DNA of 29,192 nt from a virus (Duplodnaviria > Heunggongvirae > Uroviricota > Caudoviricetes), in IMG/VR virus record IMGVR_UViG_2728369181_000002. The stretch is one strand, 5' to 3'. A program made the translations under genes and the position numbers. The notes below the pieces were generated by a model that worked only from the letters and a program-made list of their open reading frames with translations, did not search any database and was not told where the DNA came from. Each line of letters begins with the position of its first letter. Position 1 is the stretch's first letter. Shown piece after piece: positions 21,095-29,192 of the stretch.

Positions 21095-21847
21095 TCATCT
21101 CGTCACTTTTCTTAATTGCGCCTCAGCATATGCTTCTTCCTGCCAGCACTTTGTCACCAGTTTATCAATGACATCTGCATATCCTTTGTACCACTGATAA
21201 TCAGTCAGGTCCGGTACCAGCTTCTGGACATGATGCCGCGCCAGTGTGGTTGGTAAACGGCTAAACCGGTTTCCATTGCAACGCCCACAAATCTTATAAA
21301 CAGGCATGCCATGAAGCCGGGTTCTTTTTTCATCCAGGACAATACCTTTACCCTTACACCCTCTGCACGCTGTGCTGACTTCTCCCTTACCATGACAATG
21401 CTGACATAGTTCCTTCACCCACTCTTCCTTGATAACAGATTCCCCGTTTCTGGAGTGTTTCACCACTTCGCGCAATACATTATGAAATCCAGTACCAGCA
21501 CAATGCTCACAGCGAGCCTTACTTGCCGCAGATCTGGAATAATCAGCAAAGGCAAAATTCACAAGGTAAGGAATGATCTGTAGCCGGGTTTCTTCACTCA
21601 ATTTGTTCAATGTCGGGTTATCCAGTGCCATCGCGTAATTGAGCAGACCTTCAATCGCAAACTGAGGATCCTGAACACCAACTTTTGCCAGGAATAAGGC
21701 AAACCCAAGCGGTGCTTTCGACTGCACCATCCCCTGCGCAGCCATCACATCCGTAATCGTTAAACCACCCGAGCCTGTCGCCGGTGCGTCATCGCTCAGT
21801 TTTGGAGATTTTGGGGAGTAATATTTTGGTAAGGCTTCAAGGTTCAT
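21095..21847 (-). CDS. antitermination protein Q-like (contains four CxxCxGxG zinc-finger repeats)
   Basis: 250-aa ORF at the canonical Q position, after the nin-like genes and before pR'/lysis; contains CEHCAGTG, CQHCHGKG, CRGCKGKG and CGRCNGNR; GGAG ribosome-binding site. Confidence 0.6.
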   Translation of the reverse strand: MNLEALPKYYSPKSPKLSDDAPATGSGGLTITDVMAAQGMVQSKAPLGFALFLAKVGVQDPQFAIEGLLNYAMALDNPTLNKLSEETRLQIIPYLVNFAFADYSRSAASKARCEHCAGTGFHNVLREVVKHSRNGESVIKEEWVKELCQHCHGKGEVSTACRGCKGKGIVLDEKRTRLHGMPVYKICGRCNGNRFSRLPTTLARHHVQKLVPDLTDYQWYKGYADVIDKLVTKCWQEEAYAEAQLRKVTR

Positions 21848-26476: not shown

Positions 26477-27118
26477 TCATGCGTTAGTTTCTCCACAACC
26501 AGAAGCAATCGACGCCACGACGCCCGGAGCTGCACACTCGCGGGCGTTACTCTTTTCCGGCGCACAAAAAACACGAAATAACAGTGTCAAATGCTCCTGC
26601 CACTTCGCCATTACTTGGTAGCTGTTCTCTTCGATTTGCTCACGCTCAGCCTGGTCAATAACTCCATCAGCAGTTGCCTTGCGTAAGTACTGGGAATGCT
26701 TGCCAATCCATTCTATTGACTCCATCAGCCGCTGATTAATGTCACCATTGTCAATGTCATCAATGACCACCAGCGGCACAAACACCCCATTACTACGACG
26801 GGCTATTGCATCCGTTACATGCCTGGTACCACTGGCATCCTGTAAAACCATGGCCCACTCAAGTGGAAAAATTTGATCCCCACCGCTACGCAGTCTGTTA
26901 TGCAATTGATCTTTTGCTGGGGTGATATCATCAGATTTATACAAACCAAGAATTTCTGCTGCTTCCTCATAGCCATGAGGTAAATCAGCAATCGTTCTTC
27001 GTATTGCTGCCACCAGCCATGCTGGCTGTTTATCAACTTTCCATTCAGGTTCTTTACCCACGTTTAAGTCCTCATATCTGTGGTTTCTGTAAATCGATTT
27101 ATCCATTAGATTTTTCAT
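26477..27118 (-). CDS. CII-position regulatory protein (YdaT/CP76-like, tentative)
   Basis: Start tentatively at ATG 27118 ([19 protein letters not shown]...); second gene of the early rightward operon, directly after the Cro-like gene; family assignment from memory. Confidence 0.5.
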
Positions 27119-27299
27119 AAAGCTCAGGTTTAAATGGCAACCGTCCGCAAGTTCTATATGCAGCCTCTGCTGCACGTCCTTTTGGAATTAACTGGCCAGG
27201 ACGGTTTCGCCACTGATAAACGGCTTCAGTTGTTATGCCGAAAAAAGCAGCAACTTTCTCAATGCTGCCGAAGTAGCTTTCGATATCGTCAGTCGTCAT
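27099..27299 (-). CDS. Cro-like transcriptional regulator (YdaS-type helix-turn-helix)
   Basis: 66-aa ORF, ATG at 27299..27297 preceded by GGAGGG; helix-turn-helix-like segment VAAFFGITTEAVYQWRNR; divergent from the CI-like repressor. Confidence 0.6.
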   Translation of the reverse strand: MTTDDIESYFGSIEKVAAFFGITTEAVYQWRNRPGQLIPKGRAAEAAYRTCGRLPFKPELYEKSNG

Positions 27300-27311: not shown

Positions 27312-27374
27312 CTAAGTTTTATTAGATGTTAATTATCAATCTATCTTAGGTCAATAAAAACTAAGATTACTTAG
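27312..27374. promoter_or_regulatory. immunity-region operator cluster (CTAAG-N4-NTTAG palindromes) with divergent promoters
   Basis: CTAAGTTTTATTAG at 27312..27325 and CTAAGATTACTTAG at 27361..27374, plus a CTTAG-N11-CTAAG inverted pair at 27345..27365; all lie in the 97-bp gap between the divergent Cro-like and CI-like genes. Confidence 0.55.
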
Positions 27375-27396: not shown

Positions 27397-28023
27397 ATGG
27401 AAACGGTTGGTCAGCGTATAAAAGCTCTGAGAAGGGTTACCAGAACGTCCCAGAAAGAATTGGGTAAATTTTGTGGAGTAAGTGACGTTGCTGTGGGGTA
27501 CTGGGAGAAAGACATCAATGTCCCTGGTGGGGAAGCACTTTCAAAATTAGCGAAGTTCTTCAATACGTCAATAGATTACATTCTTTATGGTGCTGAGTTT
27601 GAAGGCAAACTCGTCACAAACATGCGCAGAGTTCCTGTAATCTCGTGGGTGCAGGCTGGGCAGTTTACTGAGTGCAGGACAGCAGAAGTGTTTAGTGAAG
27701 TAGACAAGTGGGTAGATACATCATTAAAGATTGGTGATAACTCATTTGCATTGGAGGTTAAAGGCGACTCCATGACTAACCCTAATGGCCTCCCAACAAT
27801 ACCAGAAGGCGCAACAGTGATTGTAGATCCTGATGCAGAACCCCGGCATGGAAAAATAGTCATCGCTAGACTTGATGGAACAAACGAAGCCACAGTAAAA
27901 AAATTAGTTATCGATGGCCCTCAAAAGTTTTTAGTGCCATTAAATCCCCGGTACCCCAACATCCCGATCAATGGTAATTGCCTCATCATTGGTGTAGTCA
28001 AAGGAGTTCAATACGAACTCTAG
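27397..28023 (+). CDS. CI-like repressor (helix-turn-helix domain plus LexA/S24-type autopeptidase domain)
   Basis: 208-aa ORF with N-terminal HTH (QRIKALRRVTRTSQKELGKFCGVSDVAVGYWEKD) and C-terminal S24-like region (GDSMTNPNGLPTIPEGATVIVDPD...GKIVIARL); no obvious ribosome-binding site, as for PRM-type leaderless transcripts. Confidence 0.85.
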   Translation: METVGQRIKALRRVTRTSQKELGKFCGVSDVAVGYWEKDINVPGGEALSKLAKFFNTSIDYILYGAEFEGKLVTNMRRVPVISWVQAGQFTECRTAEVFSEVDKWVDTSLKIGDNSFALEVKGDSMTNPNGLPTIPEGATVIVDPDAEPRHGKIVIARLDGTNEATVKKLVIDGPQKFLVPLNPRYPNIPINGNCLIIGVVKGVQYEL

Positions 28024-28041: not shown

Positions 28042-28073
28042 AAAACACCGAACTAAGAAAAGTTTGGTGTTTT
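28042..28073 (+). terminator. candidate terminator after the repressor gene
   Basis: 13-bp stem AAAACACCGAACT / AGTTTGGTGTTTT (one G-U pair) with 6-nt loop, followed by a T-rich stretch; begins 19 bp after the repressor stop. Confidence 0.45.
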
Positions 28074-28088
28074 CTCTTGCCATTAAAA

Positions 28089-28102
28089 CTAAGTTAAGTT
28101 AG
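28089..28102. promoter_or_regulatory. operator-like site CTAAGTTAAGTTAG (third copy of the CTAAG-N4-NTTAG motif)
   Basis: Same motif and AAAA-flanked context as the site at 27361..27374; sits about 105 bp upstream of the ClpX-ZBD-like gene. Confidence 0.45.
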
Positions 28103-28207
28103 ATTTTATATCAAAGATAACGAACAGGCAGGACGCCCACGAAGTAGCCGCCGGTGGCGTATGAATGACCGGATGATTCGTTAAATACTATGTGTAAGAG
28201 AGCGCAA

Positions 28208-28411
28208 ATGAACCGTTATTTCACATGCTCGTTTTGTGGCGCAAACGAGCTGCGGGCAAAAAAAATCATCGCCAAAGGCGGAAAAGATGAAGTTGCTATC
28301 TGCTCTGAGTGCGTAGTCTTGTGTGTCGGGGCATTAATCAATATCAGCACAACTATTCAGTTCACACCAAATGAGAATGCGCCTTTAGATGCGCGGAAAT
28401 CTGGAGGTTAA
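28208..28411 (+). CDS. ClpX N-terminal zinc-binding-domain-like mini-protein
   Basis: Start placed at ATG 28208, preceded by AAGAGAG; 67 aa, MNRYFTCSFCGANELRAKKIIAKGGKDEVAICSECVVLCVGALI aligns with the C4 zinc-binding domain of ClpX (CSFCGK...VYICDECVDLC) as recalled; no AAA+ ATPase domain follows. Confidence 0.55.
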   Translation: MNRYFTCSFCGANELRAKKIIAKGGKDEVAICSECVVLCVGALINISTTIQFTPNENAPLDARKSGG

Positions 28412-28500
28412 AGAACAAAATGAAAGTCCAGATTTTAAACAATAACTGTGAAGTCGTTTGGGCGTAAAACATGACCGCGCGTAGACCAAGGGAGGGAAAA

Positions 28501-28677
28501 GTGGGAATAGTTAGAAATCAAGCAGATATATTGAAAATCAGCTCTGAATTGCTTGGAGTTTTGAAAAGTGAGCTCACCGCACATGGCATCGAGCCCACTG
28601 ACGAAAATTTAAGTTGGGTTTTGTCGATTATTCAACAATCACTCAAGCCCAGCCTCAGCAAACTTTTTATCGAGTAG
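28501..28677 (+). CDS. hypothetical small protein
   Basis: GTG at 28501 preceded by GGGAGGG at 4-nt spacing; 58 aa; AT-rich; its 3' end overlaps a convergent small ORF. Confidence 0.35.
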   Translation: MGIVRNQADILKISSELLGVLKSELTAHGIEPTDENLSWVLSIIQQSLKPSLSKLFIE

Positions 28678-28830
28678 TGCTTCGAACTTATCGTAAAGCT
28701 TGCTTATGTCGTCTATCGGGTTTTCTGACGTACTGTAATTTTTATCTGATGTCATGGCAGCAGTCTGATATGCAGTGTGAGTCTTAACCGATAGTTGGAA
28801 TAAATAAAGAATTTTTTCTTCTTTGGTCAT
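28639..28830 (-). CDS. hypothetical small protein
   Basis: ATG at 28830..28828 preceded by AAGGAAA (MTKEEKILYLFQLSVKTHTAYQ...); 63 aa; AT-rich; convergent with and overlapping the 28501..28677 ORF. Confidence 0.35.
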   Translation of the reverse strand: MTKEEKILYLFQLSVKTHTAYQTAAMTSDKNYSTSENPIDDISKLYDKFEALLDKKFAEAGLE

Positions 28831-29192
28831 AACTATTTCCTTCTTGGCTATATGAAAACACCAAGATACCACCGAGCCTGAAGTGGTGAAAAGACAGGCA
28901 CATAACAGCTAAGTATTTTCAACCAGAGAGAATCCTTAGCGTTGTGGTGAATGCGGCTCAGCGCACGCGGGTTAAGGTTGAGGCTGACAGTCGACCTTCT
29001 GTGGATACCCACCCGCCTGGTGTGCAACCTTCGCCAGGCACCGGGAGGCACCCGGCACCACAACTTTATGCTGTGTGTAGTCCTGGCGGTACCAGCTTGT
29101 ACCATTGCTTCCGGCTGGTACCGCTCTTTTTACAAAACAGAGAAGAGCATCACCGGACGACGGGCTCATAACCCAATCCATCCGGGCGGCTG

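Follow-up and report, generated by a model that had tools for sequence, protein, structure and literature searches.

The window analysed here is the whole of a 29,192-nucleotide (nt) stretch of Caudoviricetes DNA (IMG/VR record IMGVR_UViG_2728369181_000002), a lambdoid prophage resembling SfV and CPS-53 whose orientation, judged from PHROGs and Pfam assignments, is opposite to that of the lambda map. Its last segment (28940-29192) holds an element that is a sub-threshold variant of a known small RNA family, STnc100/PasD, in a new map position, and part of whose mechanism we infer; it forms a non-coding gap of about 400 nt that heads the early-left operon, between the immunity region and yfdP-yfdQ-yfdR. 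An earlier note on this DNA had described an abrupt switch from AT-rich to GC-rich composition around 28940, and the GC fraction indeed rises from 0.393 (28640-28939) to 0.589 (28940-29192), reaching 0.637 in the core (28941-29064), with sliding 60-nt windows going from about 0.43 to 0.60 at 28940. The parts of the element, all on the + strand, are as follows.

28911-28937, + strand: small 5' hairpin, AAG-AUUUUC...GAGAAU-CUU, which aligns with STnc100 model positions 1-30 and is in the minimum free energy (MFE) fold of the extended sequence
28941-28949, + strand: 5' strand of helix P1, GUUGUGGUG, which pairs with 29056-29064 as a closing helix of 9 base pairs (bp)
28950-28965, + strand: conserved AAU junction and hairpin A (UGCG-GCUCAG-CGCA, 28952-28965), invariant in the subfamily
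28968-28972, + strand: 5' strand of helix P2, CGGGU, which pairs with ACCCG at 29011-29015
28974-28980, + strand: pseudoknot strand X, AAGGUUG, which pairs with CAACCUU (X', 29025-29031) in the loop of hairpin C
28981-29010, + strand: variable region B, whose UCGACCUU segment can pair locally with strand X
29016-29038, + strand: hairpin C, CCUGGUG...CGCCAGG, with 7 pairs (29016-29022 / 29032-29038) and a loop that holds X' (29025-29031)
29039-29060, + strand: conserved 22-mer CACCGGGAGGCACCCGGCACCA, which overlaps hairpin D and the P1 3' strand
29041-29055, + strand: hairpin D, CCGGG-AGGCA-CCCGG, upper-case (highly conserved) in the Rfam consensus
29056-29064, + strand: 3' strand of P1, CACCACAAC, directly 3' of hairpin D
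29069-29077, + strand: conserved single-stranded linker UGCUGUGUG, unchanged among the versions from E. coli, Salmonella and Cronobacter
29085-29131, + strand: intrinsic terminator, a GC-rich stem of 12-13 bp (29085-29096 / 29114-29124) followed by CUCUUUUUA
29132-29192, + strand: long hairpin, of which the window holds the 5' arm ACAAAACAGAGAAGAGC (29132-29148) and the apical part, completed here from a homologous locus (L001:6232-6322)

All four inverted repeats listed in the earlier note are present. The one placed at 29015-29039 is CCTGGTG/CGCCAGG (29016-29022 / 29032-29038), CCGGG/CCCGG lies at 29041-29055, the one placed at 29088-29122 is GGCGGTACCAGC/GCTGGTACCGC (29085-29096 / 29114-29124, 11 nt at 100% complementarity), and GCTCTT/AAGAGC lies at 29123-29128 / 29143-29148. 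What that inventory had overlooked is, within the core, the 9-bp closing helix (28941-28949 / 29056-29064) and the pseudoknot, and, around the third and fourth repeats, the terminator U-tract and a much longer hairpin whose 3' arm lies past the window.

Folding and a search for covarying pairs in homologous prophages, both proposed in that note as checks, point to a selected RNA structure. The MFE of the 124-nt core has a z-score of -3.09, with none of 200 dinucleotide shuffles as good, and that of a 361-nt stretch, for which an E. coli chromosome of 99.7% identity supplied the missing part, has a z-score of -6.03; the better-defined fold is that of the + strand. In an alignment of six distinct close homologues (E. 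coli, SfV, an IMG/VR variant, ST64B, 118970_sal3 and phiES15), standard pairs fill 99.1% of pair cells, as against 36-43% when the partners are slid by one to three columns, and three double compensatory changes are found, one each in P1, the pseudoknot and hairpin C. All 9 pairs of P1 are retained in the 6 homologues, with one G-C to A-U double change, and its GGUG/CACC closure is present in every family member inspected. P2, which is specific to the subtype, is paired in all alignment cells with letters on both sides, its counterparts being GCGGGG/CCCCGU in phiES15 and GCGGAA/UUCCGC in locus L016. Hairpin C varies at its closing pair (C-G, U-G or U-A) and at 29021-29033 (U-G, C-G or U-A), and its U-G pairs, which would be C-A on the minus strand, support function on the + strand, the strand that is also indicated by the G-U pairs in general, by the U-tract and by the fold. 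Read from covariation, the predicted RNA of 28941-29064 is thereby shown to be a compact core with a closing helix, four internal helices and a pseudoknot.

The pseudoknot has no place in the consensus structure line printed by cmscan and is an observation of the present analysis. It is AAGGCUG/CAGCCUU in phiES15, a double compensatory change from U-A to C-G (pair 38-87), and across the family about ten different X/X' sequence pairs occur, among them CCAGUC/GACUGG, AUCAGC/GCUGGU, CUGGUG/CACCGG, CCAGAC/GUCUGG, GCCAGGUC/GACCUGGC and AGACUGACAAA/UUUGUCAGUCU. When 54 distinct combinations were compared, strand X could pair with its own loop over at least 6 bp in 91%, as against 29% with loops taken from unrelated members. 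The MFE fold omits the pseudoknot and pairs AAGGUUGA with UCGACCUU, a local pairing that is kept only partly in ST64B and phiES15; pairing of UCGACCUU with strand X is modelled as a possible alternative conformer.

The sole Rfam match in the whole window is to STnc100 (RF02076), at full length (model positions 1-206) over 28911-29133 on the + strand, with 45.4 bits and an E-value of 2.6e-8 against a gathering threshold of 47 bits. The relatives in SfV, phiES15 and ST64B also score below that threshold, at 39.5, 40.6 and 35.1 bits (35-41 bits). The sub-threshold score of the element is probably due to hairpin A, which aligns with the CCCCCUnnGCGGnGGGG hairpin of typical STnc100 and diverges from it in sequence. 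With the STnc100 family and its PasD1 and PasD2 relatives, found in Salmonella and in enterohaemorrhagic and enteropathogenic E. coli (EHEC and EPEC), the element shares the GGUG/CACC helix, the GAAU junction, a hairpin directly 5' of CACCGGGAGGCACCCGGCACCA whose loop pairs with an upstream strand as a pseudoknot, and a 3' intrinsic terminator, together with carriage on prophages and the same strand logic. The hairpin and U-tract at 29085-29131 align with the terminal stem of the model and are compensatory across homologues. The element differs in having UGCG-GCUCAG-CGCA in place of CCCCCUnnGCGGnGGGG, in its extra helix P2, in lacking an adjoining near-consensus promoter, and in heading the early-left operon rather than occupying the usual place of the family, between the Q antiterminator gene and the lysis genes. 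The segment is, on this comparison of sequence and predicted fold, a divergent member of the STnc100/PasD family, and the homology is clear, which agrees with the structured non-coding RNA that the earlier note had considered, the full-length match coming with helices and a pseudoknot that are kept by compensatory changes. No tRNA or tmRNA was found with ARAGORN, and no C4 (RF01695) or isrK match occurs anywhere in the window, so that by that test the element is not a C4 or P4-CI immunity antisense RNA. C4 (80-84 bits) is present beside isrK (64-67 bits) in the antirepressor region, on the side of the rightward promoter (PR), in SfV, ST64B, mEp460 and Stx2a_1447 (L003:1195-1383, L004:409-597, L127:823-1011 and L128:768-956).

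STnc100 has been listed among the small RNAs of gammaproteobacterial prophages, with no function assigned, and was detected by reverse transcription quantitative PCR in vesicles of Shiga-toxin E. coli (STEC) and of which one copy lies 75 nt 3' of stx2B (PMC12370729). PasD1 and PasD2 have been validated on northern blots, depend on Hfq for stability and have partners in RIL-seq data (from sequencing of interacting RNAs after their ligation) (PMC8550237). According to Zhu, Shabalina and Storz, PasD, which lies near Q and upstream of a sialate esterase gene, shares its structure and probably its ancestry with STnc100 (bioRxiv 10.64898/2026.05.13.724894).

To find further relatives, viral contigs were scanned for the exact 22-mer CACCGGGAGGCACCCGGCACCA, which returned at least 120 loci, in which the invariance of the 22-mer is by construction of the search. 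Among the matches listed, 85 distinct cores in 34 clusters were obtained in a first extraction and 74 in 24 clusters in a stricter one, and GGUGAAU (28946-28952 in the window) together with CACCGGGAGGCACCCGGCACCA (29039-29060) is common to the 85. A more divergent core, below Rfam detection, was seen in mEp460 (L127:3353-3490), in Stx2a_1447 (L128) and in Kosakonia (L135), with the same P1 and GAAUGCG. In the Stx2, cdtI and mEp460 phages, this core has CCGG-AGAUCAGCA-CCGG in place of hairpin D, and the hairpin A loop of the mEp460 type, GCUGAU, is complementary to the last hairpin loop, AUCAGC (AUUAGC in Kosakonia, with pairing via G-U), which, from sequence complementarity, suggests a loop-loop kiss. 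A scan of genome contigs with GTGGTGAATGCGN{4,10}GCGC proved too loose, nearly all of the 120 matches listed being chance occurrences in GC-rich genomes, and only the Kosakonia locus was recovered by a later motif filter; a Pluralibacter locus (L160) that looked relevant by taxon proved not to be.

Downstream of the core, the linker UGCUGUGUG is a candidate base-pairing seed, and UUGCUGUGU stands directly 5' of the terminator also in L016, L054 and L064, despite much longer linkers there. The terminator hairpin has a free energy of -23.7 kcal/mol (z -4.08 against shuffles) and was missed by a simple terminator scan because its loop exceeds 8 nt. Its stem sequences differ wholly in ST64B, phiES15, L016, L054, L064 and L084, all of which retain a stem and U-tract, and this constancy of form under changing sequence argues for an intrinsic terminator under selection. 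The long hairpin that follows has a stem of about 25 bp, which takes in the U-tract of the terminator, and its 3' arm, GUUCUUCUCUGUUUUGU, lies past the window end, immediately 5' of the yfdP ribosome-binding site; the pairing is retained in ST64B as ACACAACAGAAAAGAG / CUCUUUUCUGUUUUGU, and terminator and long hairpin are 96-97% identical in the Stx2, cdtI and mEp460 phages. By its stem length, the long hairpin is a possible ribonuclease III (RNase III) site. A boxA-like CGCUCUUUUUACAA and an ops-like GGCGGTA in the terminator were judged coincidental because they are not conserved in SfV, ST64B and phiES15, and the first of them is no more than the U-tract.

When viral-contig elements are split by the sequence of hairpin A, 109 fall into a late type and 25 into the subtype of the window (among the matches listed). 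In the late type, a lysozyme gene lies downstream on the same strand in 55 of the 65 loci that have 3 kb or more of sequence on that side, and a DnaJ-type Q homologue lies upstream on the same strand in 32 and downstream in none; other late-type copies are found 227-528 nt 3' of Q proteins from PF06530 and PF06323, which are unrelated Pfam families. In annotated Klebsiella phages, the element stands between Q (or a 'molecular chaperone', a label given to DnaJ-type Q) and the holin gene. Many late-type copies begin about 7 nt past a near-consensus promoter such as TTGACA-17-TAAATT, and this promoter-proximal placement between Q and lysis genes indicates that they serve late operons as leaders and occupy the place of lambda 6S RNA. 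That the core is recognised by one particular Q family was considered and rejected, late-type copies following Qs of PF03589, PF06530 and PF06323 alike and the Q of the window having a separate leader.

In the subtype of the window, by comparison, none of the 25 loci has Q upstream or a lysozyme gene downstream. The order repressor, element, early-left genes is found in SfV, ST64B, phiES15 (with kil and gam), mEp460, L084 and E. coli chromosomes, and yfdP lies about 400 nt downstream in 8 of the 17 subtype loci in which 3 kb or more of sequence follows the element. A third context is provided by L016, L054 and L064, in which a core of the window type heads small accessory cassettes between portal and terminase genes, encoding coiled-coil or membrane proteins of 125-361 amino acids (aa), with neither Q nor repressor nearby. 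The element thus heads three kinds of unit, always before a terminator: late operons (with three Q families), early-left operons of phages without N, and accessory (moron) cassettes. Across the family the spacing from core to terminator ranges from 20 to 170 nt, the linker sequence is not conserved between subfamilies, and the nearest called downstream open reading frame (ORF) is on the strand of the element in 82 of the 112 loci with one called.

Several loci carry tandem same-strand copies, each with its own terminator: L021, L038, L052 and L072 (484 nt apart), L077 (267 nt), L014 (922 nt), L022 and L028, the second copy of L028 being preceded by a separate promoter-like sequence. The late leaders of the Klebsiella type (L011, L036, L104 and L130:3725-3760) have a second conserved segment, CCUGGUAAAUCGGUAGCUCGGACWAUYAGG, about 100 nt 3' of the core and ahead of the first terminator.

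The genes and signals of the window that bear on transcription into the element are listed below.

21095-21847, - strand: Q antiterminator (PF03589 plus DnaJ zinc finger; PHROGs/Pfam)
26477-27175, - strand: CII-like gene (PHROGs/Pfam)
27099-27299, - strand: Cro-like gene (PHROGs/Pfam)
27397-28023, + strand: S24 repressor, CI-like (PHROGs/Pfam)
28042-28073: terminator of the repressor gene
28077-28105, + strand: probable leftward early promoter (PL), TTGCCA-17-TAGATT, from a promoter scan, overlapped by operator-like CTAAGnnnn(n)TTAG and directly 3' of the repressor's terminator
28190-28411, + strand: ClpX-type C4 zinc-finger protein of 73 aa (PF06689, E 8e-10), first ORF after the probable PL and, like the two genes that follow, a member of a PHROG family
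28471-28677, + strand: 68-aa protein (PHROG 15476)
28639-28872, - strand: gene of PHROG 2605, between the proposed PL and the element

The sequence at 28077-28105 is probably PL and the likely source of transcripts entering the element: operator-like CTAAGnnnn(n)TTAG repeats occur also in the cI-cro intergenic region, at 27312 and 27361, and an equivalent promoter with operators lies immediately 3' of the repressor genes of ST64B and mEp460. On the far side of the element, yfdP, yfdQ, yfdR and later xis and int continue on the same strand in SfV and in genomes that share the upstream genes.

Three further observations concern this neighbourhood. A leader of about 60 nt 3' of the probable PL, AACAGGCAGGACGCCCACGAAGUAGCCGCCGGUGGCGUAUGAAUGACCGGAUGAUUCG (28124-28180), is near-identical in Salmonella phage ST64B (L004:2668-2728) despite differing flanks and may be a second conserved leader element. 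At the position of 28639-28872, other carriers hold different minus-strand genes, of 63-170 aa, and the spot looks like a slot for accessory genes. A short hairpin at 28869-28905, with compensatory changes (CACCACCGAGCCUGAAGUGGUG versus CCACCUCGCCUGAUGUGG) and followed by AAAAGNCAGGCACAYAAC, is also found at L001:5975-6005 and L005:2895-2935; it is kept upstream of the element in phages with differing immunity regions and has the clear features of neither a terminator nor a promoter. The late leader of the window itself (about 21060-20965, - strand) is short and lambda-like, with TTGCAT-17-TAGGAT, TAACGAT and a terminator about 60 nt on; it directly follows the 250-aa Q (two PF03589 repeats and a DnaJ CXXCXGXG zinc finger) and has no STnc100-like RNA. 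Its TAACGAT is close to AACGAT, the pause-inducing sequence of lambda.

We favour, with moderate confidence, the reading that the element forms the structured RNA leader of the early-left (PL) operon together with the operon's first intrinsic terminator, gating the operon and releasing a small RNA of about 220 nt of the STnc100/PasD type. Homology, fold, the conserved features of the terminator, map position and non-coding status carry this reading, the map position being supported by the order repressor, element, yfdP/Q/R or kil/gam on one strand across carriers. Transcription of the + strand would most likely start from the repressor-controlled promoter at 28077-28105, the RNA would fold into the pseudoknotted core (28941-29064), and polymerase, after a short linker, would meet the strong hairpin and U-tract at 29085-29131, presumed to act as a terminator. 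Unmodified polymerase would stop at 29131, leaving yfdP-yfdQ-yfdR-...-xis-int silent and releasing a stable RNA of about 220 nt, and expression of the operon would need read-through of the terminator. By homology with PasD, the released RNA probably acts in trans with Hfq, perhaps via the linker UGCUGUGUG; traits of Hfq-bound small RNAs seen in the element are the 5-U tract and this conserved single-stranded linker, Hfq dependence itself being known from the relative PasD.

Several points weigh against this reading. The 1.6 bits by which formal Rfam membership is narrowly missed are one; the minus-strand gene of PHROG 2605 (28639-28872), which separates the proposed PL from the element, is another. 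The uninterrupted run of U in the U-tract is just 5 long, and the loop, of about 15-17 nt, is of unusual length for a terminator. No sigma-70 promoter adjoining the element came out of a promoter scan, which means that a released RNA, unless processed, would make up the 3' part of a transcript of about 1 kb; CATAAC (28900-28905), picked out by eye as a promoter hexamer, has no credible -35. The pseudoknotted core of 124 nt, with its invariant unpaired nucleotides, far exceeds the needs of an Hfq small RNA; this reading does not account for what the core does, and none of the readings considered here accounts for its conservation across such different contexts.

The alternatives differ in what they ask of the segment. 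That it is protein-coding, as a small protein or as an N-terminal extension of YfdP, is highly improbable, even though the frame from ATG 28951 runs uninterrupted into yfdP in E. coli and SfV (226 codons), RefSeq, whose Prokaryotic Genome Annotation Pipeline (PGAP) models the region only as a frameshifted pseudogene, annotates it, and several phage records have a hypothetical coding sequence here. The plus frame from ATG 28951 is stop-free to the window end and one minus frame is open for 72 codons from that end, as the earlier note had it, and three of the six frames are nearly stop-free across the element, which is expected at 59-64% GC; the translations are unprotein-like, being low-complexity and rich in arginine, proline and glycine. 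In phiES15 and mEp460, no frame spans the element, and ST64B and E. coli do not agree in the frame that runs on into yfdP, as they are set apart by indels of +1, +20 and -1 in the stretch from the core to the yfdP start, with an additional 1-nt deletion inside the core. Substitutions are compensatory across the helices, no reading frame is kept among homologues, and when the sequence is extended past 29192 yfdP follows, with no conserved coding frame spanning the element, which upholds the view that it has no convincing coding frame. A role at the DNA level, as an attachment or recombination site, an operator cluster or a mobile-element boundary, has next to no likelihood: the abrupt change in composition and the dense dyad symmetries would suit it, but the G-U pairs and the pseudoknot are meaningful only as RNA, the operator motif CTAAGnnnn(n)TTAG is not repeated at the element, and the same prophage goes on for several kb with yfdP, yfdQ, yfdR, xis and int, so that the recombination site and the edge of a further element proposed earlier fall away.

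Two further readings keep the RNA and give the core another task. In one, the core would act in cis as a processive antiterminator that needs no protein, as HK022 put or Bacillus EAR do, and would replace N-nut in SfV/ST64B/LLS-type phages, the nascent RNA binding the transcribing polymerase and carrying it through the following and later terminators. The location fits, as the element lies between PL and the first early-left terminator with no ORF, or no conserved ORF, before it, and the first PL ORFs encode a ClpX-type zinc-finger protein and an unknown protein, neither of them N-like; nucleotides that are invariant beyond pairing, together with unrelated partner proteins, fit an RNA that contacts a host machine, and a terminator spacing of 20 to 170 nt suits a processive mechanism. 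Phage LLS, which has an ST64B-like early-left operon, was reported to lack an N homologue, and a put-like RNA was suggested, without one being named (PMC12315714). Most family members, however, lie between Q and the lysis genes, just 3' of a near-consensus promoter; were they autonomous antiterminators, Q would have no purpose there and lysis would be constitutive, which would be lethal. In lysogens, relatives have been detected as small RNAs that are discrete and terminated (PMC8550237). With the STnc100 model, moreover, HK022 putL and putR are missed even at E up to 10, put having two stems where the element has five helices and a pseudoknot, and the window has no further copy on its PR side, in contrast to putL plus putR. 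We regard this reading, and with it the antitermination site considered in the earlier note, as possible but unlikely. In the other, which we hold to be improbable, the core is an aptamer that senses a ligand or condition and controls the following terminator as a riboswitch-like attenuator. A compact pseudoknotted multi-helix junction with invariant unpaired nucleotides, a terminator that always follows, same-strand genes that usually follow (as counted above for loci with a called downstream ORF, and in all subtype members) and two candidate partners for strand X, the hairpin C loop or UCGACCUU, would fit such a device; inspection revealed no conserved mutually exclusive pairing between core and terminator and no expression platform, the linker varies from about 20 to 170 nt without sequence conservation between subfamilies, and the downstream genes (lysis, yfdPQR, moron) point to no ligand.

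The leader-and-terminator reading places the element beside several known systems. Lambda 6S RNA and StxS, the latter from Stx phages, where the terminated product can reportedly serve as a small RNA in lysogens, share with it an RNA that lies close to a promoter and stops at the first terminator of its operon, the operon being opened only by antitermination, and late-type relatives are in exactly that position; the copy in the window differs in lying in an early-left rather than a late operon and in being far more structured. With lambda nutL and the N leader it shares the position after the repressor and PL and before the early-left genes. The lambda N leader has an RNase III site, which the long hairpin of the element, just before the first gene, recalls. 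In contrast to nutL, the element contains no boxA/boxB pair, and no N-like protein was found in the PHROGs and Pfam assignments of the first PL ORFs. HK022 put, too, is an RNA placed after an early promoter and ahead of the first terminators in a lambdoid phage without N, with conservation beyond pairing. The window has one copy of its element 3' of the probable PL and none elsewhere. Put is of about 70 nt with two stems and starts at +1, whereas the element is of about 124 nt with five helices and a pseudoknot, lies 0.3-0.8 kb 3' of PL, lacks a PR-side copy and has no detectable homology to put in sequence or structure. Resemblances to put found by eye (GCGGGUUCAGG and CGGGAG..CGGC) follow another order and were put down to chance, the comparison having used the STnc100 model and not a put covariance model.

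Of 5426 complete E. coli genomes, 2779 have a match to the sequence, which in 1826 covers 80% or more of the query, and in E. coli the element is recorded as a hypothetical or frameshifted protein, with Rfam annotation missed by 1.6 bits. The STnc100/PasD family gains a covarying pseudoknot and a positional rule, by which its members stand at the heads of antitermination-controlled phage operons whichever Q family is present, and this rule sharpens the question of what so elaborate and conserved a core does across such different contexts. For read-through into the early-left operon of SfV/ST64B/LLS-type phages, in which no N has been recognised (PMC12315714), the element and its terminator are the obvious test object. 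It seems quite unlikely, on present evidence, that the core is a portable cis-acting transcription-control RNA, serving these phages as an N-independent early antitermination device, a second put-like or conditional system; were this true, it would be their missing N-independent system, structurally unrelated to put.

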